Positions 19,900 to 60,110 of a stretch of DNA of 64,000 nt are shown in pieces (the stretch's first letter is position 1; each line of letters starts with the position of its first letter). Origin of the DNA: a virus. Under the pieces are notes generated by a model that was not told the origin of the DNA, ran no database searches, and was given only the letters and a program-made list of their open reading frames with translations. The stretch spans positions 32,001 to 96,000 of the IMG/VR virus record IMGVR_UViG_3300042878_000903. One strand, given 5' to 3'. A program made the translations under genes and the position numbers.

Positions 19900-20061
19900 T
19901 TACTCCTTTGGTTTTTCCTTTGGTGCCTCTAGTTCTTGAATTTTTAATGACAACTGAGTAATCTCGGCACGAAGAACAGCAATACTTGTCTCATATTGTG
20001 AGACAATTTCTCCAATACGTTGCTGTAATGCTGTTACAATTAATTCTAATCTATTATCCAT
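19900..20061 (-). CDS. 53-aa coiled-coil protein after the tail fibre
   Basis: Not in track: MDNRLELIVTALQQRIGEIVSQYETSIAVLRAEITQLSLKIQELEAPKEKPKE. Confidence 0.7.
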   Translation of the reverse strand: MDNRLELIVTALQQRIGEIVSQYETSIAVLRAEITQLSLKIQELEAPKEKPKE

Positions 20062-22589
20062 TATATACCCTTCAGTGTATTTACTTCTTGTTGTAATGAT
20101 TCTACCATATTTGACAATTCTTGTATAGCTTTGGTTAGCGGTGAAATAAATTCTTCATAAACCAAAGCCTGGCTAGACTCTGGATCATCCTTGTCGGCTA
20201 GCGTCCAAAAAGCTGCTGAGTCATATATACCTGATTGGTCTAAAGCTTCTTTTACTTCTTGAGCTACAAACCCGTAATGATTTCTTAATCCTGGGTCATT
20301 CAAATTTGGCTCAGTTATTGGCTTATCAGAATTTTCATGTAATATTTGGTTACCGTCTTCATCTATAACTGGCTTAACGGATCTTGAATTCAGTTTGTAT
20401 TTTCTTGGATTCAATTTTTTAATAAAATCTAGGCCTAGATCTGAAACCTGTATGTTATTTTTATTTCTATTATCTGAGCTTACGTTTGGACTATTTATTA
20501 AAAATACGTTTCTCCATCTAAGGTTAAAAGGGGAGCTTACAAATCCGAGTGAAGCGTCGTCAGTATAATACGGATACCAATTTGAAAGAGTTCCAGCTGA
20601 TCCCGCAGACATCATGTTTATAGCATTTACTGCTAAAGCCTCAATCGAGGTACCAGTTCGTATAGACTTTGTTTTAAAATAATAAGAATTAGTCAATGAT
20701 CCAACTGTAATGGTTGGGGTTGTAATAGCTACACTTGCACCAATTGTTCCAGCAGTAATTTTATCTGCGTTGATATTAAATGCTGAAATAAAAGTTGAAA
20801 CAACTGCATCTGAAGATATTGTTCCAGCTGTTATTTTACCTCCGCTAATTGTAGTTGTTGTAGTAGAACTGTTAATGCTATTAACAATTGCATCCCTGTT
20901 AAAACTACTAGATGGTAAAGCGGCATCTGCCGTTGCTTTTGCAGCCTGAGCAGCAATTTTTGCGGTATTGGCATCTGATGCAGCAGTTGTTGCGGTGGTA
21001 GAAACAGTAGTTAACTGTGTAGATGTTGCGTACCCAGAAATACTTGAGCCCGCTCCAAAAACTGCACCTGTCGCATAAAGAGTTCCATCAGATTTAATTT
21101 TAAACTTTGCGTTTGCATCTGGTGTATTGTTGCCAGCCCACATAAGAAATGTGTCGCTACCAGAAACTTCTGTTCCTAAATAAATACTATTTTGTGCACT
21201 TGCCCCAACTTGTATTTTGCCATTACCAGTGCTATCTAATATAATATTGTTTTTAGAAAAAGTATTATCTCCCAATGCCCAACCAGCAATACTTCCACCA
21301 TTTGCGGTTATAGTTCCTGTTGCAGCAGATATAGTTACAGACTTTGTGCCATTAGCAACTTTAAGTCCTGTTGAGTTTAATGCAAATCCATTGCCTGTTA
21401 AGTTTCCAGTTGTAGCATCAATTGTTCCGCTATATATAGATGCTCCAGTTGTAGACATAAATATATTACCGCTAAACTGCCCACCTCTAGCTGTTATGTT
21501 ACCATCTACAGCAAATGTAGAGCCGTCCCACAAAAGGTAGTTTGAGGTTGACCCTCCAACTTTAAGTCTGGCACTGTTTGCTGCATTAATATACCAATAG
21601 TTGCTGGCATCAAAATATAAACCTTTATTTGTTGCAACTGATCCCACCCCTACTCCAAATTCAAAATCTCCGCCCTTAATAAAATTTGTTACTGATGGAG
21701 TTCCAGTAACCGTAACATCTGGTCCAGATGTATACAAAGAAGATGTATTATTATATTCATCATATGTAGCAACTGCTATTTTATAGGTTGAGCCAATTAC
21801 TAATCCAGCAAGTTTATATGTTGTTCCAGTTCCTGGAGAATCGACATAAGAATAAGTGGCTCCGCTATCATTACTAAATCTAATTCTATATCCTCTTATG
21901 CCACCTCCCGTTACTGCTGGCCAAGATATGTTTGCGTAAGCATTGAATCCCAAGTATCCAGATGTATCAATTCCACTTTCAGTAGTCACGGAAGTTACGT
22001 TTGCTGGTCCAGTTGTATCTACAACAATTGGGTCTATTGCTTTGAATGGGCCAAAAGAAACACTTTTCTTTCTATAATCTTGATCTCGTGTGTCAACTCT
22101 TATCCACCTGTTTGCCGTATTTGAAACAAGTATGGTTGCAGAATTTCCGTTCCCATTCCAAACTAAATATTCTTCTCCTGCAAATGCTCCAGTTAAACTT
22201 TCGTATATTTGTATATCAATAAGCCATTTGTTTGCAACCAAAGCTTTATCTATTAAAGTCCAGTTTACTCCATAAGAAAGAAGTGAAGGTGTTACAACAA
22301 GGTTGGTAACTGGCTGAGTTAAATCAGGAGTTTGTAGCGTAAATACAAAGTTTGGGGACCTAGTTCCAGGAATAAGGTTTGAAGCATTATTTGGATCAGA
22401 GTATAAATACGAAAATGAGAATTGATATTTACCATTCATTACAACATTTAATCCTGATTTTTTAACAGTAAAGGAATCTGCGCTTTTTGTATTGGCCGCT
22501 GTAGCCGCTTCTGCATTTGTTTTGCTTAAGTCTGCTGGTATATATCTTCCACTTACTGGATCATATCTGCCTGGGGAATATTTATCCAT
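20061..22589 (-). CDS. Tail fibre/central spike with FN3 domain and C-terminal peptidase S74 intramolecular chaperone
   Basis: FN3 (ISWP..GYRIRF...Y.IAVAT); SSDNRNK...GFVAQEV S74 motif; terminal coiled coil. Confidence 0.85.
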   Translation of the reverse strand: MDKYSPGRYDPVSGRYIPADLSKTNAEAATAANTKSADSFTVKKSGLNVVMNGKYQFSFSYLYSDPNNASNLIPGTRSPNFVFTLQTPDLTQPVTNLVVTPSLLSYGVNWTLIDKALVANKWLIDIQIYESLTGAFAGEEYLVWNGNGNSATILVSNTANRWIRVDTRDQDYRKKSVSFGPFKAIDPIVVDTTGPANVTSVTTESGIDTSGYLGFNAYANISWPAVTGGGIRGYRIRFSNDSGATYSYVDSPGTGTTYKLAGLVIGSTYKIAVATYDEYNNTSSLYTSGPDVTVTGTPSVTNFIKGGDFEFGVGVGSVATNKGLYFDASNYWYINAANSARLKVGGSTSNYLLWDGSTFAVDGNITARGGQFSGNIFMSTTGASIYSGTIDATTGNLTGNGFALNSTGLKVANGTKSVTISAATGTITANGGSIAGWALGDNTFSKNNIILDSTGNGKIQVGASAQNSIYLGTEVSGSDTFLMWAGNNTPDANAKFKIKSDGTLYATGAVFGAGSSISGYATSTQLTTVSTTATTAASDANTAKIAAQAAKATADAALPSSSFNRDAIVNSINSSTTTTTISGGKITAGTISSDAVVSTFISAFNINADKITAGTIGASVAITTPTITVGSLTNSYYFKTKSIRTGTSIEALAVNAINMMSAGSAGTLSNWYPYYTDDASLGFVSSPFNLRWRNVFLINSPNVSSDNRNKNNIQVSDLGLDFIKKLNPRKYKLNSRSVKPVIDEDGNQILHENSDKPITEPNLNDPGLRNHYGFVAQEVKEALDQSGIYDSAAFWTLADKDDPESSQALVYEEFISPLTKAIQELSNMVESLQQEVNTLKGI

Positions 22590-30600: not shown

Positions 30601-33600
30601 TAATCCTGGTGCATAAGGGAAAGATCTTTGGCCCCCGTAAGATTTAGCTGCTTCAGCACGTGCTGCTTTTTCTGCAAGTTGTTCTGCACGTTTTGCTGGA
30701 TTTCCACTAAGCCCATATGAGTCTTTATCATTCCTAATAACTCCGCCAATTTCATATCCTGGAATAATTTTTCCACTTTGAAGTGGTCTAAATATTTCTG
30801 GTCCTTTTTCTCCAACAACATAATTTTGTCCTGGAGATACTGGCCCACCCATTTCTCTATTTCCTCTAATATCAAATATTTTCTTTTTAAGCTCTTCTGT
30901 CATTGGGGTATTTTGTTTTGAATCCCAAGTTAAATATTTATTTTTTAATATGTCTTTATCTATTGGAGAAAGCTGTCTTATAATATTTCTGTCAGCAATT
31001 AAATCATTAGCAGCCTGTCTAATAATTGAATCTAGTACGTCTGGCTCAAGACCATGCTTTAAAGCACCAGTCTTTGGATCTTTAACATATCCGTACGGCT
31101 TTTCTTTTGCCATAGCCGCTGCAAACTTGTCATAGAATAATTTTTGTGTATTTTTTCTTAAGCCAGAATTTGCAAATAATGTTTCTGCCATTCCTATTGA
31201 AAGTGAGTTAACTCCCCATGGCGCTGACTCATACATACTAGGCTTAGGAGCTCCAGTTGGTCCAAATCCTGCACCAATTCTTCTCATAGCTAAGCCCTTT
31301 AAAACATTGCCAATTATTCCTCCGTTATTAAACTTAGGCATCATGTGTGCCAGTGCGGTAGGTTCTCCATTAATTTTTTCTATTCCATAATTACGATATG
31401 ATCCCATGTACCGTGTACCATTGGCATCATTTGCTTCCATAAGTTTTGCTAAATCTGTTTTACCATATGGGTTTAAAGCAGTCTCTGCTTGAATTCCCCT
31501 AGCAACTGGGTCAGTTGAATGTGCTCTTCTTTGTCCTGGTACATTTAAGCTTTCTAAATATTCTTTTCTTAAACGAAGTTCTTTGGCTATTGAAAGGTAT
31601 TCTTTGTGTTGAAGCCTTGACCATTCTGCTTCTCCAATTTTTCCAGTACCAGATAAACCAGAAACTATGTTTGTTCTAGCACGATCAGTTAATAGTGCTA
31701 TTTTATCTGGAGGTACTTTGTTTACCTGTAAGAATCTGGTAAGTGAAGGTAAAGCCTGTTGAGATGAGCCATGCATTAAATCGCTTACAATGTCAGCTTT
31801 TTTAGCAGCACCATGAGAAAGAGCTGTATTAACACTTGCTCTTAATCTTCCGCCCCAATTTCCTACGAAATAATATTGCCTACTTAATTCTTTGGATGAC
31901 GATCTAAGCGCAGTTCCAAAAACACTGTCTTGGTATGCTCTAGCTTCTGCACCAGACAAAGACATATCTCTGCCTCGAAGCATTTCTCTTGAAAGCTTTG
32001 GATTACGCTTAAATAATTGTGCTAAAATTTTGCCCATTACTGCTGGGTTTATTGCTCCATAATTAGAGGTTGAAAGACTAATCTTTCCGCCACCCATATT
32101 TCCTGGAAGTGGTCTTCCGTTATTTGCTGCATCTACTGCTGCAAATAGTTCTGGATTGTCTTGAATTCCTGGACCAAATACTGTTTCTTGCGGTGTAAGA
32201 AGAGCAGTAATATTACCACTAGATTTTTTATGTGTTGAAGGAGCGGCTGCAACAAGTGCTGCATTTTTTGGATCTAAAGATGCTTCTTGATTTAATACAT
32301 ATCCGCCCAATGGAACGCTACCCATTCTATCATCATACGAAATAGATGCAGGTCCGCTTACCCGAGTTTTATTTTGACCAAAGTCTTCAATTTTTCCGCC
32401 AGCATTAAATCTAGGTTTTGTTGTTTGAATACTATATCCTGCTCCAGAAGTTCTAACACCAAGACCACGGGCAATAGAATCTACAAGCTTAGAAGTGTCT
32501 GACTTATGGAAAAGCTCTTTCATATTTGACTTGCCAGCTGCGCTTACTACTGGCTGAGATGTGAGCGGTACCATCCCTAAGTTTATGCTTCTTGCTTGAG
32601 CCGTAGCTACACCCTGTGCTGTTTGAGCTAGCATAACTTCTACTTGTCGATTTAATGCAAATATCTTGGCTCTAGCTGCCTCTACTGTAATTTTACCAGC
32701 CTGTAATTGTTTAACAATTAATGCTGTTTCGTCTGCTGCCAAAGAAGTTATCTTTGTCATTTGTGGAAGTAATGCTTGATATGAATCTGATAGTGATGCT
32801 GTTACTGTTCCAGTAGCAGCAATTTCAGTTTTAAGTAATGCTATTTCCGCCTTGGACTGCATTGCTAATGCTGCAGTCATAGAATGCCACTTAGCTGCTT
32901 CTGCTGCAACTATTCCATTTGAAACTCCATTAACTGAAGTAACTCCAGGAATCCTTGGAAGGTCATCACTCATGTATGTCTGTGGTGAATTTGAAAGTCT
33001 TAGGTTTACTGGCTTAGGCCCAGGAACAGTAGAGAATATTGTTTCGCCTGCCCTTTGTTCTGCAGTCTTTGATCCAGTTGGAATAACATGGGACATGTCT
33101 CTTGAATAAGATTTACCGACAAGTGGATTGTCTTTGTCTACAATTCTTCCTCCGCCTCGCATAACTGGATTACCAGCTATTGTAGACATGCTGTTGCTAG
33201 TTGCAACGGTAGATGACATTGCGCTCTGTTTTAATTTTTCAAATGATGCTGCTAATGTTAAAACTGCATCAGAAAATGTAGCTGCTGCCTTTGTGTCACT
33301 GTAGAATGATTGCTCTACATTTTTTGCAGCAGATGATGCTGCCATTAATTCTGGAGTTAATAACTTAAATCCTGTCCCGCCCTTGCCAATGTTTTTAAGA
33401 GCAAGTATTCCTTTAATAATGTATCCAAAGAAGTTGGCAAGTACACCAGTTAACATAATAATAGGACCAGCAACTGCTGTAAGGCTTCCAATAAATCCTA
33501 ATACTGCTTTAATTGGGCCAGGAAGGTTTCCAATAAACTTTACAATGCCGTCAATTGCATTTAATACAAATGTTCCAACTTTTAGGAACTGCTCTCCAAT

Positions 33601-46240: not shown

Positions 46241-47353
46241 TTACTTCTCTTCTAGGGCTTTGACTCTCGCTGTAAGCTCTTGTACTGCTTTAATTAATGG
46301 TGATATAAATTGATCGTACCTAAGTCCTTGCATAGAATCTTCTTGTGACATATCCATTTTTACCCAACCAGCAAAATCCCCGACACCAGATTCATCTAAG
46401 GCTTGTTTTACTTCTTGGGCAATAAGTCCATAATGTGTTCTTGATCCAGGAATAGAAACTATGTCTCCTTCGACAACTTCTTTGCCGCCTTCAACGAACT
46501 TATATTTTACGGGATTTAAATTATTTATAAAGTCAAGACCAAGCGGGGATGTAGCAATATCAGTTTTTAATCTTTCATCTGAAGTATTAATGGTTCCAGT
46601 ATTAGAGTATATTGTTTTCCAAAATCTATTTGATGAAACTCCATTTGGTACATCTGTTGGCTGACCTATTGAATAAAGATTGTTTGCAAAAGGATACCAG
46701 TTAGAATTTACTCCGTATCCAGAAGATGTTGGTATGTTTAAACTTATTGTTGTTGGAATTGGGTCAATTGTTGCGCTCTCTCCAGGAATACCTTGAGGTC
46801 CAGTTGCGCCAGTTGCGCCAGTTGCGCCTCTTGGTATTGTAAATGAAAAAATAGCATTTGCTGTTGTTCCAGTATTTGTTACCGAAGCATTTGTTCCAGC
46901 ATTGCCAGTTGTGGTTGTTCCAACAGCTATTGTTGCTGGGCCTTGTGGACCTACTGGTCCTTGTATGCCTTGTGGACCTTGAGGGAGAACTAAATTTAAT
47001 GTTTGTGAAGGGCTGGTTCCAGTTATTGTTGCACTAGCAGAACCTCCCTCAACAACCGTTCCAATATTTAAAACATTGGATGGGCCAGGGCCACCAATAA
47101 TTCCATCAACACCTCTTGGTAATGTTAAATTTAATATAGCATTAGATGCAGTTCCTACATTAACAACTGATGCTGGTGTAGCCGCACTAACAGTAGTTAC
47201 TGTACCCACCGCTAACGTGCCTGAAGGGCCCTGTGGGCCTGGATTAGCGGCTATAAAGGTTGCAATGTCGGCACCAAGGTTTCCAAGGTCTCTAGGGACG
47301 TCTGGGGTGTCTGTATAGTCTGGAAATCTCCAGCCATTTACTCCTGTACTCAT
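46241..47353 (-). CDS. Collagen-like fibre protein with C-terminal peptidase S74 chaperone
   Basis: GXY runs (GPQGIQGPVGPQGP; GATGATGATGPQGIPG); TSDERLK...GLIAQEV; leaderless promoter TGGTATAAT at 47360-47368. Confidence 0.85.
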   Translation of the reverse strand: MSTGVNGWRFPDYTDTPDVPRDLGNLGADIATFIAANPGPQGPSGTLAVGTVTTVSAATPASVVNVGTASNAILNLTLPRGVDGIIGGPGPSNVLNIGTVVEGGSASATITGTSPSQTLNLVLPQGPQGIQGPVGPQGPATIAVGTTTTGNAGTNASVTNTGTTANAIFSFTIPRGATGATGATGPQGIPGESATIDPIPTTISLNIPTSSGYGVNSNWYPFANNLYSIGQPTDVPNGVSSNRFWKTIYSNTGTINTSDERLKTDIATSPLGLDFINNLNPVKYKFVEGGKEVVEGDIVSIPGSRTHYGLIAQEVKQALDESGVGDFAGWVKMDMSQEDSMQGLRYDQFISPLIKAVQELTARVKALEEK

Positions 47354-50354: not shown

Positions 50355-51079
50355 TTATCTATTATATCATTTCCCTTGTTTAATTCATGATTGACTTTAA
50401 GCCTAATAGCTTTTACTTGATGACCGCCTAGGACATTTTTAAGGTGATCTACAGCATCTCTATAAAAATTAGACCAAATTGCTTTTCTGTTTAAATCGTA
50501 AATAACATTAGAATACTCGTTAGAGTCAAATTTAGGGTCTGGCAAAGACTCTACTTTATCAAAATTTATTTCTGAGTTTTGTAAAGCCTCTAAATCTATT
50601 GGTAGTATAGCAATTATTGGTGTTCCTGCTTTTATGGTAATAACTTCGTTTGGTTTAGTTATCATCCAGGCACATGGCAATTCTCCTCTAAAAAATGATG
50701 TACTCATTAAGGTTGTAAAAGGAACGGCACCGTCAATGAATAAATTTGGAACTGGCATAGATAGAAGACTTAAATTTTCTTCAGTAGAAAACATTAGGCC
50801 CGTATTAAAACTTACTGTTCCATTAGCTCTACCAGAATAAGCATACTTTTCACCAGACAAAATTTTAACGTGATCTGGAGTGCTGTCTGTTACGCCATCC
50901 CATATAAAAGATATATCTTCTGGAAAAGATATTCCCCAGCCAAGCTGGTTAGTGAGTCCTACTGGAAAACATTTATATGCATGAGATTCCCAAGTATTAT
51001 CCATCCAATCTCTTTTAATTGAAAGAGGAAAAACTTCTCCGTAACCATTTCTTATTGTATAGGCTTTAATTTTATGCAT
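50351..51079 (-). CDS. DUF6065-like protein
   Basis: RDWMD...HAYKCFP...NQLGWGI; start refined to MHKI. Confidence 0.7.
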   Translation of the reverse strand: MHKIKAYTIRNGYGEVFPLSIKRDWMDNTWESHAYKCFPVGLTNQLGWGISFPEDISFIWDGVTDSTPDHVKILSGEKYAYSGRANGTVSFNTGLMFSTEENLSLLSMPVPNLFIDGAVPFTTLMSTSFFRGELPCAWMITKPNEVITIKAGTPIIAILPIDLEALQNSEINFDKVESLPDPKFDSNEYSNVIYDLNRKAIWSNFYRDAVDHLKNVLGGHQVKAIRLKVNHELNKGNDIIDK

Positions 51080-51785
51080 ACGAGTTTTTGCCAGTTTTTT
51101 CATCTTCTACTAACCATCTGGCTCGTGCTTCAAAAAATTCTTGTCTGTGAGCATGATCATTATAATCAAGCATTGTTACAATAGAAAACTTCATGCCATC
51201 TTCTACTGGCATTGCTCTATGCGAAAATAGATAGGTAGATGGGAAAATATATAAATCGCCAGCTCTTGGCTTAATGTTTAGACCTAATTTAGGAAAAAAT
51301 AAATTGCCTCCTGCATAATCGTCATTTACATAAGCAACTAATGATACTGTGGCACTATATGAAAATCCGTGGTCGGCATGCTCTTGGAAGTGTTGTCCTT
51401 TGCCGTATCTAATACAGTTCATAACTTCCCAATAATTCATCTTTACACTATATTTAGTACAATAATCTTGAACTGCTACATCCTGTGCTTTTTTTAAATC
51501 AGACCATAAATCTGCAACTAGTTTCTGGGTTTCATTGACTGGATTAATTATCTCTCCAATTTTAATATCTTCACAGTCTCTATATGATGGTCTTTTTTCA
51601 CTATACCCAACAAAACCAAATGTCCAACTGTATCTGGAATCTGCCTCTTTATCAGCAGAATTTCCTATTGCGTTTAATCTATTAATAACGTCTAAATCTT
51701 TTTTAATTACATCTCTGTATACCCACACGCCTGGGAAAAGCTCTTCCTTTGAAGAAAATCCATATTGGTCATTTATAGTAGTCAT
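51072..51785 (-). CDS. 2OG-Fe(II) oxygenase (P4H-like) #1
   Basis: RY..GQHF..HAD, YVNDDYAGG, H...PV..G.KF. Confidence 0.9.
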   Translation of the reverse strand: MTTINDQYGFSSKEELFPGVWVYRDVIKKDLDVINRLNAIGNSADKEADSRYSWTFGFVGYSEKRPSYRDCEDIKIGEIINPVNETQKLVADLWSDLKKAQDVAVQDYCTKYSVKMNYWEVMNCIRYGKGQHFQEHADHGFSYSATVSLVAYVNDDYAGGNLFFPKLGLNIKPRAGDLYIFPSTYLFSHRAMPVEDGMKFSIVTMLDYNDHAHRQEFFEARARWLVEDEKTGKNSYA

Positions 51786-51791
51786 GCCTTT

Positions 51792-51820
51792 ATTGTATCA
51801 TTTTGAATTTACAAATACAA
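51792..51820 (-). promoter_or_regulatory. Promoter TTGTAT-N17-TACAAT, leaderless start of the oxygenase cluster at 51785
   Basis: ATG 7 nt after the -10. Confidence 0.7.
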
Positions 51821-51824
51821 TAGC

Positions 51825-51859
51825 AAAAAGAGGGGGGCATTGTGTGCCACCCCTCTTTT
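51825..51859. terminator. Intrinsic terminator between the FN3-Hint gene and the oxygenase cluster
   Basis: AAAAGAGGGG-GGCA loop TGCC-A-CCCCTCTTTT. Confidence 0.8.
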
Positions 51860-51867
51860 ATAGATAT

Positions 51868-53073
51868 TTAAGCTATTACTAGGAAGGAATTAACGATAAA
51901 CCATGGATTTGGAGATGTTCTAACATCGTACACGGTAGATTCTGTTTCACTCTTTTCAACTGAGGTTACTGGAGTTCCTTGGACTAGTCCATTTGAATCT
52001 ACTCCTATGATTATTTCTCCTATCTCAATTTCTCCTGCATTCTTATAGGTAATACCATTTGAGGTTTTTACAAATAACGGCTGGGTTTCTGAGTAGTCTT
52101 TACCTCTGTAATTAAATCCAATTAGCTTTCCAGTTTTTTCTGTTATTGAAATAACTTCTGAATTTGTAAGCTTAACTGTTGATTCTAAATGTCCAGATGT
52201 TTTATTTGCGGTTATAGATTCAAGATTAATATTAGAGTTATCAACTGTTATTACTTGATCTCCAATTTTAATATCTTTAGCTTTTACCCATCCAGTATTG
52301 GTGAAAATAACTGATTCTGGTGATAAACACTTACCCTTAAATCCTGGTGGGGAAAAGAACCCTGGTGGGGCAAAGAACCCTGGTGGGGCAAAGAACCCTG
52401 GTGGGGCAAAGAACCCTGGTGGGGCAAAGAACCCTGGTGGAAAGAACGGTGGAAAGAACGGTGGAAAGAACGGTGCTTGAGTTGTAATTTCCGCTGTATT
52501 TGCTGAAGCTGCTGACCGACCATTAGCATTATCTGCATAAACATTATAATACTGAGATGTATTAGCAGTATCATTGATGGTTATACTTAGGGATGCTGTA
52601 TTTCCATTTGTTCCATCATTACCTGCAACATAGTAGTTAGTTATTGCGGATCCACCATTTGCTGGCTCTGTCCAAGTAATTGTGTTTTGGTTAACTCCTG
52701 CAGTTGCGATTGGGCTTTGTGGAGCTTGAGGTACGGTTGTTGCAGTAATGCTATTTGAGGCAGCAGATGCTGCACCAGTTCCTACTGCATTTGTTCCCGT
52801 TACCGTAAATGTATATGCTGTATTTGATTGTAAACCAGTTACAGATATTGGAGAAGATGCTCCTGAAGCAGTATACGATCCTGGAGAGGATGTTACTGTA
52901 AAGGATGTAGCAGCAGGTGAATTTGCTGGCAAAGAGAACGTTACGTCGGCCCGTCCATTGTTATATGCACGACCAGATGGTACGTTTGTTGCTGTTACTG
53001 ACTCTGGTGCCCGTGGCTCCAAAAAGTCATTTGATGCCTGTGCCTTTTTACCGAATTTCTTACCTACTGCCAT
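51868..53073 (-). CDS. 2x fibronectin type III + PP(G)FF repeat tract + C-terminal Hint domain protein
   Basis: FN3 motifs (VTGL...YTFTVTGTNAVG; W..P.NGGS.IT.Y); repeat tract; Hint starts CLSPES...KDIKIGD and ends VYDV...FIVN. Confidence 0.85.
   Translation of the reverse strand: MAVGKKFGKKAQASNDFLEPRAPESVTATNVPSGRAYNNGRADVTFSLPANSPAATSFTVTSSPGSYTASGASSPISVTGLQSNTAYTFTVTGTNAVGTGAASAASNSITATTVPQAPQSPIATAGVNQNTITWTEPANGGSAITNYYVAGNDGTNGNTASLSITINDTANTSQYYNVYADNANGRSAASANTAEITTQAPFFPPFFPPFFPPGFFAPPGFFAPPGFFAPPGFFAPPGFFSPPGFKGKCLSPESVIFTNTGWVKAKDIKIGDQVITVDNSNINLESITANKTSGHLESTVKLTNSEVISITEKTGKLIGFNYRGKDYSETQPLFVKTSNGITYKNAGEIEIGEIIIGVDSNGLVQGTPVTSVEKSETESTVYDVRTSPNPWFIVNSFLVIA
52339..52476. repeat. 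18-bp (FFAPPG) x5 plus 12-bp (FFPP) tandem repeats
   Basis: cctggtggggcaaagaac units at 52343 (variant), 52361, 52379, 52397 and 52415; ggtggaaagaac units at 52448 and 52460. Confidence 0.95.
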
Positions 53074-53106
53074 TTTGAATCTCCTTTTTAACTATTTAAA
53101 TTTGTA

Positions 53107-54942
53107 TTACGCCATCAAGTCGCCGTAGACAACCCATGTATTTGCTGCTCTCTTAAAGAGAGTACAAGATGACCAGGTTGTACGAAGCTTTAGGCCAGGT
53201 GTTGCGTTAACTGTAACTGTTCCTGATACTGGGGCAATTGTTACTTGTCCAGCTCCAGTTTGAAGAATATCAATAGATGTTCCGATTGGGAAGTCTAGAG
53301 TTGCGTCTTCTGGTATTGTTAAGGTTAGAGGTGATCCTGATCCCATTTCGATTAGATCATCTCTTTCAGTTAGTGATGAAAGTGTATATGATGCTGTTTT
53401 TGCAACGATTGGTGTTAAAGAATCTACCTTTAATCCAAGGCTGGTTGTTACTGATGCTGCAAAGTTTGCGTCATCTCCAAGTGCTTGAGCAAGTTCATCA
53501 AGTGTATTCATTGCTGCTGGTGCACCAGATATAAGTGCGCTTACCTGTGATGTTGCGTCTGCAATTGCTTCAGATTTTGCTGTTGCGATTGCTGAAGACT
53601 GTGCTGTTGATACTGGCTTATTAGCATCAGAAGTATTGTCAACATTTCCAAGTCCAAGTGTTGCTGGTGTTACTGCTGCAACCTCTGACTTAAGTGCTAG
53701 AAGTGCTGTATCTGCAATTCCATGAACATTTGTAGTGTCTGCTTCATGGGCTGAAAGAGCGGTAGCTGCTGCTGTAATTTGTGTTTGAACTGATGATGTA
53801 ACTCCATCTAGGTATCCAATTTCTGTTGAAGAAACTGTACCAATTGATGTTGTACTTGGAAGAGTTACTGTACCAGTAAATGTTGGTGAGGCCAAATCTG
53901 ATTTAGCTGCAAGAGATGCACCTAGTCCAGAAATTTTGTCTTGGTGAATTGCTGCAGTAGCACTTACATGATCATTTGTAATTTGAAGATCTGCAATTTT
54001 TTCTGCAGTTATTGCATCAACTGCAATTTTATCTGCAGTTACTGCACCATTTAGAATTTTTACTGTAGATATTGCATCGGTTGCTAAATCTGCTGTTTCT
54101 ACAGAGCCTGCAGGAAGTGTTACTGATCCTGTTACTGTTAAGTTAGTTAAGCCGATATCTGTTGCTGTAAGGTTTCTAAGCTCAAGATCATCTAGGCCTC
54201 CTTGGCTAAAATTAATTGTAGTGGTTGGTGCATCGGTTACTCCTGTAAAGAGTTTCCATTTATTAGCAGATGCATCTCTTGCAAATCCTGTGTGATTAGC
54301 AACTCCATCATTGTGTTTAGCTACAAATCCTAGATCTAAAGCATTTCCTGCGTTGGTTGATGCTAATGCAATTAGTGGATCTTCTGTTGTAAAGTTAGCT
54401 GTATCTAATGTTACAGTTGTTCCATTAACAAAAAGATTTCCAGCTAATGTTAAATTTTCTCCTGATATGCTTCCACTTGTTGAAATATCTGTTGCTAGTC
54501 CTGTTAGCTTTAATTGTGCCTCTGGAACCTTAATGTTTCCATCAAGTGAAGCAACACCATTTGCTGATCCACGATCTGAATTCTCTAAGTATGTGCTTGC
54601 TGTTGAATTTGTAAGTCCAGTTACTGCTGCATCAACATAGGCTACTGTTGCTACTACTGCTGAATCTACAGAAATTGTAATTGTATTTGCGCCATCATTA
54701 TAAGTCTTTGTTAAACCTGCACCCATTGTAAGTGCTGTATTGATTGCGTCTTGTGAAATTTCTCCAATTTCAGGTGCATCTGCTGCTACGTAAGAAAGGG
54801 AATTCCATGCGGTGGATCCATCTCCAACTTTAATTTTTCTAGTGTTTGTTTCAACGCCTAGCTCTCCTGCTGCAAGTATTGGATTTACTCCAGACCAGTC
54901 TGTTGCTGATCCTCTTCGAACTTGAATTCTTACTGTTGACAT
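53107..54942 (-). CDS. Fibre protein with Mtd/hyaluronidase-like N-terminal anchor
   Basis: RIQVRRG....W...NPILAAGELGVETNT.K.K.GDG...W..L; fibre repeats; ends W.VYGDL. Confidence 0.8.
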   Translation of the reverse strand: MSTVRIQVRRGSATDWSGVNPILAAGELGVETNTRKIKVGDGSTAWNSLSYVAADAPEIGEISQDAINTALTMGAGLTKTYNDGANTITISVDSAVVATVAYVDAAVTGLTNSTASTYLENSDRGSANGVASLDGNIKVPEAQLKLTGLATDISTSGSISGENLTLAGNLFVNGTTVTLDTANFTTEDPLIALASTNAGNALDLGFVAKHNDGVANHTGFARDASANKWKLFTGVTDAPTTTINFSQGGLDDLELRNLTATDIGLTNLTVTGSVTLPAGSVETADLATDAISTVKILNGAVTADKIAVDAITAEKIADLQITNDHVSATAAIHQDKISGLGASLAAKSDLASPTFTGTVTLPSTTSIGTVSSTEIGYLDGVTSSVQTQITAAATALSAHEADTTNVHGIADTALLALKSEVAAVTPATLGLGNVDNTSDANKPVSTAQSSAIATAKSEAIADATSQVSALISGAPAAMNTLDELAQALGDDANFAASVTTSLGLKVDSLTPIVAKTASYTLSSLTERDDLIEMGSGSPLTLTIPEDATLDFPIGTSIDILQTGAGQVTIAPVSGTVTVNATPGLKLRTTWSSCTLFKRAANTWVVYGDLMA

Positions 54943-57917: not shown

Positions 57918-60110
57918 TTATGCTATGGCTATAGTAGAATTAACAATAAACCAAGGTTCTGGGGAAGTTCTAATATCATAAACCTTTGAATCAAAATCAT
58001 CTACTTCAATTGATTCTACTACAATATTTGAGACTGACCCGCTTGAATCTACATTTATAATTACATCCCCAATATTAATATCTCCAGCATTTCTATATTC
58101 TATTCCTTCTGAATTTTTAATAAATATAGGCTGATTAATAGAATAGTTTTTACCAATTTTATTAAATCCAATTAATGTTGAAGTTTTTTCTGTTATAGAA
58201 ACAACCTTTACATTTGAAAATTCAATAACGGATGGTAATTCCTGTGATGTCTTATTTTGAGATACAGAATTAAGGTTTATGTTTGAACGGCTAATCGATA
58301 TAAGGTCATCTCCAACAAAAATATCTTTTGCTTTTACTAAACCATTTTTAGTAAAGACAAGTCCGTCTGGTGATATACAGGCTTTACCTCCCTTAAATGA
58401 TGGTGGGAAGAACGGTGGAACGTTTGGTTCAAAAATTGGTGGGAAGAACGGTGGTATGCCACCATCGACTCCAAAACTTGGTGGGAAGAACGGTGGGAAG
58501 AACGGTGGGAAGAACGGTGGTGCAAAAACTGGTGCTGGGTCAGTTGATTGACATGCTGGATAACTTGTCCCAAACGAACACTGACGAGAGTAGCCGCTAC
58601 CAGATGCGGACGTGTCGGAACCAGGTTTTGTGTAGCTGCAATTACCTACGCCAGCTCCAGGACTAGAGGTTGTACAATGCCATTCGCTTTGTATGCCTAT
58701 TGGTGCGGGATCTGTTGATTGGCATGCTGGATATGTTCCAGTGTTGTTGTATATACACTGACGAGAGTAGCCGCTACCAGATCCTGAATTATCAAAACCA
58801 GGGGCTGTGTAACTACAGTTACCTACGCCAGCACCTGGAGAAGAGGTTGTGCAATACCATTGAGAAGCTGGTGCTGGGTTAGTTGATTGACATGCTGGAT
58901 AAGTTGTTCCAAATGTGCACTGACGAGAGTAGCCGCTACCAGATGCGGAGTTATCAAAACCAGGGTCAGTATAACTACAGTTGCCTACGCCACCGCCGTT
59001 GGTAGAGGTTGTGCATTTCCATGTGTTTGGTGCTGGAGGATATGTTATGGTTACGGCTGGAGAAGAAAGCCAGGCGGTCTCTGTAAATCTTGGAGATGTT
59101 CCTATAATTAATACTACAAAAGATCCAAATGTATCTGGAGAAGCACCAGGTCGATCTATGTCTAAGAAATTAGTGCTAGGACTTGAAGATGCAGAGCTTG
59201 CATATACTGAACCATCATTGTACACTGTCCAACTAGTTACAGTTATGTTTGTAGCAGACCAAACCAATTTTCCTCCGTAACTGTAAGAAAGCATTCCTGC
59301 TGCAACTGAAGGTTTGTTTGGCTTTAAATCGGTAACCGATGCATTTTTGCCGTATCCGCTTAATGACGTTCCAGAAACATTGGATGTATTCAATGGATTA
59401 ATTAATATTCCTAAAGTTCCTGAAGCGGATCCTGTGTCAATTGTAAATTTACATGTAGTACCTGATGTAGAATATACACCTTTTGCAGAATCTGTATTAT
59501 TTACCATACTAGTAACTTCTGTAAATGCTACTTCTGGTCCTTGGTATTGTATATAATAATCATTAGCGCCTTTTACTTTTTCCCATGTAAACTCTACTAC
59601 GCCATTTGACACAACATTAACAGTTATATCTCCTAAATTAGCGGGAGCAATTACTGGACTTGATAAGGTATATATATCTCCTGAATTTTTACCATCTGCA
59701 TTAGTAGCCGAAACTTTACACCTAACCGCATAGCCAACATATTTTAATGTTTGTTGAGAATCCCATTCGTCTTCAGATAATGCCAAAGAGCTTGTTGTTT
59801 TATCAAGTATGTTAGACCAATTAGATGTAGGATATGGAGCTTTTTGCCATTGATATTCAAATGTTGTTGGTGAATTTTCCCAAGTACCATTTGTTGTTAA
59901 AACTGTTTGTTCTGCAGCATAAAGAAATGATGAACCTTGCAAAGAAAGAGTTGGCAAAACTGTATTGACTGGAACTATTCCTAGTAGATTTTTCCACTCA
60001 GACCCATTCCAAACATAAGCCGCCTTAGAATCGTTCCAAGATGTTCCATCATGGATTTGAATCTTTTTTAAAGGATTCCAACTGGAACCATCAAAAATGT
60101 TTAGCGGCAT
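57918..60110 (-). CDS. Virion protein: Ig/FN3-like domains + three Cys-rich repeats + PPFF tract + C-terminal Hint domain
   Basis: DG.SW N-terminus; P.NT..P...GTW..P..F.YQW Ig-like domain; repeats; Hint CISPDG...VYDI...FIVN. Confidence 0.85.
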   Translation of the reverse strand: MPLNIFDGSSWNPLKKIQIHDGTSWNDSKAAYVWNGSEWKNLLGIVPVNTVLPTLSLQGSSFLYAAEQTVLTTNGTWENSPTTFEYQWQKAPYPTSNWSNILDKTTSSLALSEDEWDSQQTLKYVGYAVRCKVSATNADGKNSGDIYTLSSPVIAPANLGDITVNVVSNGVVEFTWEKVKGANDYYIQYQGPEVAFTEVTSMVNNTDSAKGVYSTSGTTCKFTIDTGSASGTLGILINPLNTSNVSGTSLSGYGKNASVTDLKPNKPSVAAGMLSYSYGGKLVWSATNITVTSWTVYNDGSVYASSASSSPSTNFLDIDRPGASPDTFGSFVVLIIGTSPRFTETAWLSSPAVTITYPPAPNTWKCTTSTNGGGVGNCSYTDPGFDNSASGSGYSRQCTFGTTYPACQSTNPAPASQWYCTTSSPGAGVGNCSYTAPGFDNSGSGSGYSRQCIYNNTGTYPACQSTDPAPIGIQSEWHCTTSSPGAGVGNCSYTKPGSDTSASGSGYSRQCSFGTSYPACQSTDPAPVFAPPFFPPFFPPFFPPSFGVDGGIPPFFPPIFEPNVPPFFPPSFKGGKACISPDGLVFTKNGLVKAKDIFVGDDLISISRSNINLNSVSQNKTSQELPSVIEFSNVKVVSITEKTSTLIGFNKIGKNYSINQPIFIKNSEGIEYRNAGDINIGDVIINVDSSGSVSNIVVESIEVDDFDSKVYDIRTSPEPWFIVNSTIAIA
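58530..59021. repeat. Three roughly 54-59-aa four-cysteine repeats
   Basis: Exact 27-mer cactgacgagagtagccgctaccagat at 58579, 58756 and 58918. Confidence 0.9.

Follow-up and report, generated by a model that had tools for sequence, protein, structure and literature searches.

Two proteins encoded in the fibre region of an uncultured phage end in 153 amino acids that are, according to structure prediction, a genuine Hint-fold domain. Their genes, P0001 and P0002, lie in a 64,000-nucleotide stretch of DNA (positions 32,001 to 96,000 of the 109,968-bp IMG/VR virus record IMGVR_UViG_3300042878_000903), and the whole of this stretch is here termed the window. The domain has the initial Cys of the Hint fold, carries Gln in place of the block-B His and lacks the terminal His-Asn of inteins; it probably acts at its own N-terminal junction, where a thioester would be formed and then resolved.

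Hint domains were previously known from inteins, Hedgehog processing domains, BIL domains and pretoxin modules. What is new is a large and purely viral Hint family that is fixed at the C-terminus of fibre-region proteins, that follows a tract rich in aromatic residues and proline, and that usually stands beside batteries of collagen-type hydroxylase genes. The fold assignment alone is unsurprising, since some relatives had already been labelled automatically as ‘Hint domain containing protein’. In the published literature on phage Hint domains, BIL domains, pretoxin-HINT modules and phage prolyl hydroxylases no description of the family was found, only ordinary inteins in terminase and ribonucleotide reductase genes.

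The Hint fold of P0001 and P0002

The domain had been described in an earlier note made from the DNA letters alone, which had placed it at the end of P0001, and all the motifs that it quoted were found there. The AlphaFold2 model of the P0001 domain, built on the family alignment, has a mean predicted local distance difference test score (pLDDT) of 97.7. With this model Foldseek retrieved inteins, the Hedgehog domain 1at0 and BIL domains at a probability of 1.0 and with template modelling (TM) scores of 0.65-0.74, the top match being 6rpq, a CDC21-1 intein. Comparison by VIA-align with more than 80 intein, Hedgehog and BIL chains gave Z scores of 14-17 across model residues 1-153. Alignments spanning this whole length were obtained with the Mtu RecA mini-intein (Z 17.4; root mean square deviation 2.0 Å over 129 residues), Hedgehog 1at0 (Z 16.6; 2.2 Å, 132 residues), BIL2 (Z 16.2; 2.0 Å, 129 residues) and CthBIL, 2lwy (Z 16.2; 1.9 Å, 128 residues).

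Sequence profiles give the correspondence of individual residues. A profile of 56 family members matched the C. thermocellum BIL domain 2lwy over its full length (E 2.8e-11) and about 12 inteins more weakly, and in the HMMER alignment to 2lwy the S-x-x-Q-P of the family lies on T-F-D-H-P. The family was also compared by hhalign with a canonical mini-intein that ends ...VHN followed by C (P0067, picked up in the same protein search as the family). This comparison, at 95.5% probability, equates Ser80 with the block-B Thr, Gln83 with the block-B His, VYD with the VYD of block F, and Ile152-Ala153-stop with His-Asn-Cys. Both alignments thus place Gln83 on the block-B His, a replacement that the note had reported for the two copies alike, and P0002 indeed reads SINQP at the same site.

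None of the Pfam gathering cut-offs is reached by the P0001 domain, which scores 19.9 against 28.4 bits for Hint_2 (PF13403), 13.0 against 27.7 for PT-HINT (PF07591), 25.7 against 35.8 for Intein_splicing (PF14890) and 12.0 against 29.7 for Hint (PF01079). At most 20 of the 56 family members match any one Pfam Hint model at E 0.01 or below (best 8e-8), and no NCBIfam model matches the domain at that threshold. The best structural matches in BFVD (TM 0.83-0.87) are uncharacterised proteins of uncultured Caudovirales, automatically labelled ‘Hint domain containing’, ‘Fibronectin type III’ or ‘PASTA_pknB’. Two other assignments were dropped: a split intein, as all strands of a complete Hint fold are present, and a Pfam PDZ match in P0001 (25.3 bits), taken to be a beta-strand artefact in a domain that is wholly accounted for by the Hint fold.

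The C-terminus of P0001 reads ...FIVNSFLVIA and is followed by a TAA stop codon and then directly by a terminator-like hairpin (Table 1). As nothing is coded beyond this point, the Hint domain of P0001 has no C-extein, and the absence of both a terminal His-Asn and a C-extein is as the note had stated. Upstream, a ...NDFLEP... motif that is common to the orthologues precedes the FN3 domains, and the tract between these domains and the Hint domain contains five matches to a PPGFF core against 0.02 expected by chance. A 379-residue allele in the protein database (P0003) has one PFFP and three GFFAPP units fewer (window 52339-52476) and is otherwise 100% identical. The number of tract repeats would therefore vary between near-identical phages, unless repeats were collapsed in assembly.

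The N-terminal part of P0002 is unrelated to that of P0001 and comprises three Cys-rich repeats, after which comes the same cassette of tract, junction (here FKGGKA) and Hint domain. The two proteins are 56% identical across their last 167 residues, and the source record contains no Hint copies other than these two.

Table 1. Positions in the window of P0001, P0002, their parts and the adjacent enzyme genes.
Feature	Position	Strand	Basis
P0001, FN3 / Pro-Phe tract / Hint gene, 401 amino acids	51868..53073	minus	Open reading frame list and translation; Pfam fn3, E 1.7e-8
N-terminal part of P0001, two FN3-type domains	52489..53001	minus	Pfam fn3 in two stretches, best at residues 42-107
Pro/Phe tract and FKGK junction, ending at Lys248 (-1)	52330..52473	minus	Residues 201-248: three PFFP, five GFFAPP, then SPPGFKGK
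Hint domain, Cys249-Ala401, 153 amino acids, starting CLSPES	51871..52329	minus	AlphaFold2 model, Foldseek, VIA-align, profile search
Cys1 codon tgt, presumed nucleophile	52327..52329	minus	Cys in all family sequences covering it; on intein residue 1 in the model
Asn73, motif (G)FN	52111..52113	minus	Invariant, family-specific; counterpart in second copy at 58161-58163
Block B equivalent, S80-E-T-Q83-P84 (SETQP)	52078..52092	minus	Aligned on TFDHP of 2lwy and T-P-E-H-L of the canonical mini-intein
Block F equivalent, V-Y-D135-V	51922..51933	minus	Motif search and family alignment
Ile152-Ala153-stop in place of intein His-Asn-(+1 nucleophile)	51868..51876	minus	hhalign, ...LVIA on ...cvhn(c)
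Terminator-like hairpin directly after the P0001 stop	51834..51853	minus	Hairpin search
P0002, second gene, 730 amino acids	57918..60110	minus	Open reading frame and translation
Second Hint domain, 153 amino acids, SINQP at 58128-58142, ending ...IAIA-stop	57921..58379	minus	Sequence comparison
Five 2OG-Fe(II) oxygenase genes and one DUF6065 gene, directly downstream of P0001	47374..51785	minus	Pfam 2OG-FeII_Oxy_3 in five; DUF6065, E 5e-29

A viral family in two clades

Among 1.84 billion representative proteins, HMMER returned 67 hits, of which about 60 are true relatives, each with the Hint domain at its extreme C-terminus. The protein hits and 70 Hint open reading frames (ORFs) from IMG/VR loci were combined into a set of 113 non-redundant viral domains with 25-55% identity. 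Cys1 is found in 86/86 sequences covering the position, and position 80 is Ser (104) or Thr (8) in 112/112. Asn73 is likewise invariant (112/112); it lies in a loop that is inserted relative to 2lwy and has no counterpart there, and its conservation exceeds that of every canonical intein block residue except Cys1. Pro84 is present in 100 and Gly104 in 111 sequences. Position 83, in block B, is Gln in 97, His in 13 and Glu in three of the 113 domains, with no other residue; on this evidence it is not degenerate but requires a polar side chain able to form hydrogen bonds. The suggestion of the earlier note that the shared Gln marks a distinct subfamily stands in so far as no Pfam Hint cut-off is reached and no NCBIfam model matches; the Gln itself is not peculiar to the two copies but is the majority residue of the family.

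Position 152 divides the family into 85 sequences without His, including those of the window, and 28 with His-Asn. In the latter, His-Asn is followed by one to about 15 non-nucleophilic residues, mostly a single Lys (...HNK, e.g. ...VHNK). In a maximum-likelihood tree of 85 sequences having Cys1 and at least 135 aligned residues, a single branch (support 99/85) separates the His-Asn type from the type without it, while His or Glu at position 83 is scattered across at least five lineages, so that Gln, His and Glu interchange. The sister clade retains His-Asn and a non-nucleophile, and the family therefore descends from autoprocessing domains. The block-F Asp, which the note had listed as kept, is present in the window and in 68/85 sequences of its clade but in only 3/28 of the sister clade. 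The clades differ also upstream of Cys1, as an aromatic-Lys motif ([FYW]K) within eight residues is found in 62/66 sequences of the clade without His-Asn and in 0/20 of the His-Asn clade. In the former, position -1 is Lys in 39/66 and bulky in 54/66, and two to six residues separate the FK motif from Cys1. With Gln, His or Glu at block B, a clean division by His-Asn and a new invariant Asn, the family offers natural experiments in Hint catalysis.

The ratio of non-synonymous to synonymous substitution rates (dN/dS) of P0001 against five orthologues is 0.16-0.43 for the Hint domain, 0.03-0.14 for the tract and 0.24-0.47 for the FN3 part. By this measure the tract is the most constrained part of the gene, and the Hint domain is, as judged from these substitutions, under purifying selection.

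Some members depart from the common arrangement. One divergent sequence (L086:1754-3061), the sole member without Cys1, has Ser in its place and S-T-H-H as its block B, no longer contains the Gly104-Asp105 pair and extends into a six-residue tail; its Hint domain may be decaying or may use Ser1. Hints with and without His-Asn coexist on one contig (L025:3201-5150 and L025:10001-11329), where the His-Asn-type copy has Glu at position 83. Two loci (L031:10001-11966 and L032:2-1217) show a tandem arrangement: after the gene of a tract protein whose divergent Hint ends ...IVLG stands an independent 179-residue ORF, which consists of a 27-residue leader with FKAGKA and a Hint domain, has no tract and resembles a natural minimal precursor. 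The N-terminal cargo in alignment A1 is FN3 in 15/56 and PASTA in 7/56 sequences, and PKD- or Ig-like in a few; the PASTA domains would point to a host that is Gram-positive and may be an actinobacterium.

The nearest characterised relative of the window's domain is the A-type BIL domain, represented by 2lwy, which gives the best sequence-profile match among solved structures. Both have Cys1, variable and non-essential host proteins and no +1 nucleophile. The window's domain differs in having Gln for the block-B His, Ile-Ala for His-Asn, nothing thereafter, and the inserted Asn73 loop. The His-Asn plus non-nucleophile by which A-type BILs are recognised is absent from the window's clade and present in the sister clade, whose His-Asn and Lys ending resembles theirs. 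The two features expected throughout the Hint superfamily, i.e. the Hint beta-fold and a nucleophilic Cys as first residue, are both there. A class 1 intein would have a block-B His, where S-E-T-Q is found, and a terminal His-Asn with Cys, Ser or Thr, and would be inserted in a conserved host protein that splicing restores; here the domain stands at the extreme C-terminus in all members, behind variable N-terminal parts (FN3, PASTA, PKD, Ig). Nor is the architecture that of pretoxin-HINT proteins, as there is no toxin domain and nothing follows the Hint.

The Hedgehog Hint domain (1at0) is alike in fold, in its place C-terminal to a cargo, in lacking His-Asn and in chemistry that is limited to the N-terminal junction. 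The window's domain is unlike it in that a sterol- or adduct-recognition region is missing, the block-B His is Gln and position -1 carries Lys or Ala where Hedgehog has Gly, and the tree places the window's clade as sister to the phage His-Asn clade, not with Hedgehog. BIL2 of the Tetrahymena BUBL locus (6y75, 6tmm) has the Hint fold and is a precedent for transfer of an N-terminal cargo to lysine (PMC8616854). Its block-B His (H69), terminal Asn and C-terminal flank are missing here, and its cargo is a ubiquitin-like domain instead of a phage fibre-region protein. The CDC21-1 inteins (6rpq, 6rpp) activate the N-terminal junction without a block-B His (PMC6333167) but are true splicing elements, which interrupt a conserved replication protein and possess both a terminal Asn and a C-extein. 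With the Peptidase_S74 intramolecular chaperone of endosialidase-type fibres, a self-removing C-terminal fibre domain, the analogy is solely one of function, as its fold and chemistry are unrelated to those of Hint.

Putative chemistry at the Lys248-Cys249 junction

In intein and Hedgehog chemistry, splicing requires a terminal Asn and a +1 nucleophile. The terminal Asn and a following polypeptide are both absent from P0001, and splicing is therefore excluded, whereas the first step, an acyl shift before Cys1 with resolution of the thioester, is still available. The earlier note had drawn the same line, and by the established intein mechanism it was right to allow chemistry at the N-terminal junction alone. 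The reading favoured here, with a probability of about 60%, is a single-turnover N-S acyl shift at the Lys248-Cys249 bond that would release the Hint domain or activate the C-terminus of the tract protein. The shift would be driven by Cys1, Ser80 and Gln83; the thioester would then be resolved, the 153-residue Hint would detach from the protein formed by the FN3 domains and the Pro/Phe tract, and this protein would be left ending ...PPGFKGK. In this way the Hint would cap the C-terminus of a fibre-region protein and could be shed from it. The near-invariant Cys1, Ser or Thr at position 80 and polar residue at position 83 form the pattern predicted by an active N-terminal junction, not by an inert scaffold.

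Further evidence comes from relatives in which the domain is missing. At 40 related loci there is an orthologous FN3-tract protein without Hint, which has the same N-terminal motif and the same place after the Mtd_N fibre gene. Of 41 tract ORFs without Hint, 22 extend no more than 15 residues past the tract, and the remaining 19 carry a tail of about 20 residues with at least four Cys. The Hint domain is, on these comparisons, one of several (at least three) interchangeable C-terminal endings of the tract protein, and the 22 short forms would fit a cleaved mature product.

Loss of the block-B His should not be fatal in principle, as a bulky -1 residue allows inteins to form the thioester without it (Friedel et al., PMC6333167), and the CDC21-1 inteins lack it naturally (PMC6333167). 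Several points nevertheless weigh against an acyl shift. Position -1 is Ala in the second copy and Gly in near-identical alleles, so that compensation by a bulky residue is not general. The shift normally needs the block-B His, and Gln is neither a general acid nor a general base. The chemistry at the Lys248-Cys249 bond is inferred throughout, and the invariance of Cys1 would also fit a disulfide or metal-binding role, given that some Hint-less orthologues have Cys-rich tails.

The strongest of the competing explanations, clearly less probable than cleavage, is an inert attached domain that would act as a folding cap, a solubility aid or a binding module for the very hydrophobic Pro/Phe tract, with Cys1 kept for a disulfide or a metal. 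The block-B His, block-F His, penultimate His and terminal Asn are all absent, as such a domain would allow, and the 19 orthologues with Cys-rich tails suggest that cysteine chemistry after the tract may matter. A gene of about 145 codons at the Hint position in 22/48 Hint-less loci, whose product has a weak and non-significant likeness to phage fibre or fibre-chaperone structures, would agree with it as well. An inert cap does not account for a Cys1 that always stands at the domain boundary, for Ser/Thr80 and a polar residue 83 that are never lost, or for the cleavage motif His-Asn retained in the sister clade.

Somewhat more doubtful is the possibility that the thioester is passed to a specific nucleophile, so that the C-terminus of the tract protein would become covalently bound to a neighbouring subunit or to a different protein of the virion. 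The acceptor might be the amine of a Lys, which would yield an isopeptide, or a hydroxyl group that the neighbouring oxygenases introduce. The structural likeness to Hedgehog and BIL2 speaks for such a transfer, as does the Hedgehog precedent of a cargo handed to cholesterol, and BIL2 makes an isopeptide between Lys and a C-terminus without ATP (PMC8616854). The restriction of the aromatic-Lys motif to the clade without His-Asn points the same way, and 2OG-Fe(II) oxygenase genes lie within 10 kb in 45/46 Hint-bearing loci, although many of these phages are related and do not amount to 45 independent cases. On the other hand, the acceptor is a candidate only, the protein ends at the last Hint strand without a Hedgehog-like adduct-recognition region, the spacing between the FK motif and Cys1 is variable, and the Hint-less orthologues manage without such activation. 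In a specific form of this proposal, which should be treated with the same reserve, Asn73 and Gln83 might stand in for His-based catalysis, and the thioester of a hydroxylated Pro/Phe fibre protein might weld accessory proteins onto the virion.

That the domain is a decaying intein or BIL remnant without present function is very improbable. Several canonical catalytic residues are indeed missing, but the family numbers 113 non-redundant members, its fold is predicted with confidence, dN/dS stays far below 1, and many phage genomes have kept two paralogues.

The note had also considered the Hint as a docking domain for the modifying enzymes. As a general rule this does not hold, since at least three oxygenases are retained in 38/40 of the Hint-less orthologous loci. 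The oxygenases therefore go with the tract rather than with the Hint, and the Hint is not a required docking site for them.

If cleavage or ligation takes place, it would represent a new mode of virion protein maturation, and the domain might yield compact self-cleaving tags that work without a block-B His. If the thioester is captured by a partner, the phage would have its own equivalent of Hedgehog cholesteroylation and BIL2 conjugation, and tract, FK junction and Hint would form a portable cassette with a self-activating C-terminus.

Gene neighbourhood and alternative endings

The source record contains phage genes for a portal, a prohead protease, an HK97-type capsid protein, a DnaE-type polymerase, DnaB and RecA. 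Both Hint genes are surrounded by fibre genes with Mtd_N, Peptidase_S74 and laminin-G domains, and Peptidase_S74 domains are encoded twice in the window (46241-47353 and 20061-22589). The usual order in Hint-bearing loci is an Mtd_N fibre gene, the tract-Hint gene, five to eight oxygenase genes with a DUF6065 gene, and an S74 fibre gene, and many phages have two tract-Hint genes per locus, as in the window. For the more distant relatives the locus context is that of IMG/VR loci only. A search of viral contigs found no related loci for P0032, a protein of the His-Asn clade.

Among 50,697 GenBank phage records, no match was found to window positions 51000-54000 by megablast or to the Hint or DUF6065 protein by tblastn, a result of low weight, as this set may lack close records. 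A scan of 185,579 cellular species genomes with P0021 gave two short contigs of metagenome-assembled genomes (Actinomycetota and Beijerinckiaceae), and these match the N-terminal FN3 part only; there is therefore no prophage and no firm host.

The Cys-rich tails of the Hint-less orthologues have four to nine Cys (type ...C-S-C-G-Y-C-W-R-C...) and match no recognised family; they were seen at L091:10001-10978, L063:9989-11050, L083:1537-2499 and 16 further loci. The gene of about 145 codons mentioned above follows the Hint-less tract gene directly, belongs to a family with WNGxSF and WDGxxF motifs (e.g. L047:10974-11417, L091:11055-11492 and L063:11127-11573), and occurs in 0/46 Hint loci. It was considered as a detached Hint or a protease. 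The Hint hidden Markov model does not match it. In Pfam one member had no match at E up to 1 and another had chance-level matches only. The AlphaFold2 model of the protein (pLDDT 87) had no Foldseek match at E 0.001 or below, and its best VIA-align scores, Z 5.1 with a cyanophage fibre and Z 3.9 with a Mu fibre/chaperone complex, are both within noise.

In several relatives the long second tract-Hint gene has one or more oxygenase genes of its own about 0.5 kb downstream (L009:3954-4658, L010:3483-4184, L012:10977-11681 and L015:1237-2591), which are absent after the corresponding gene in the window.

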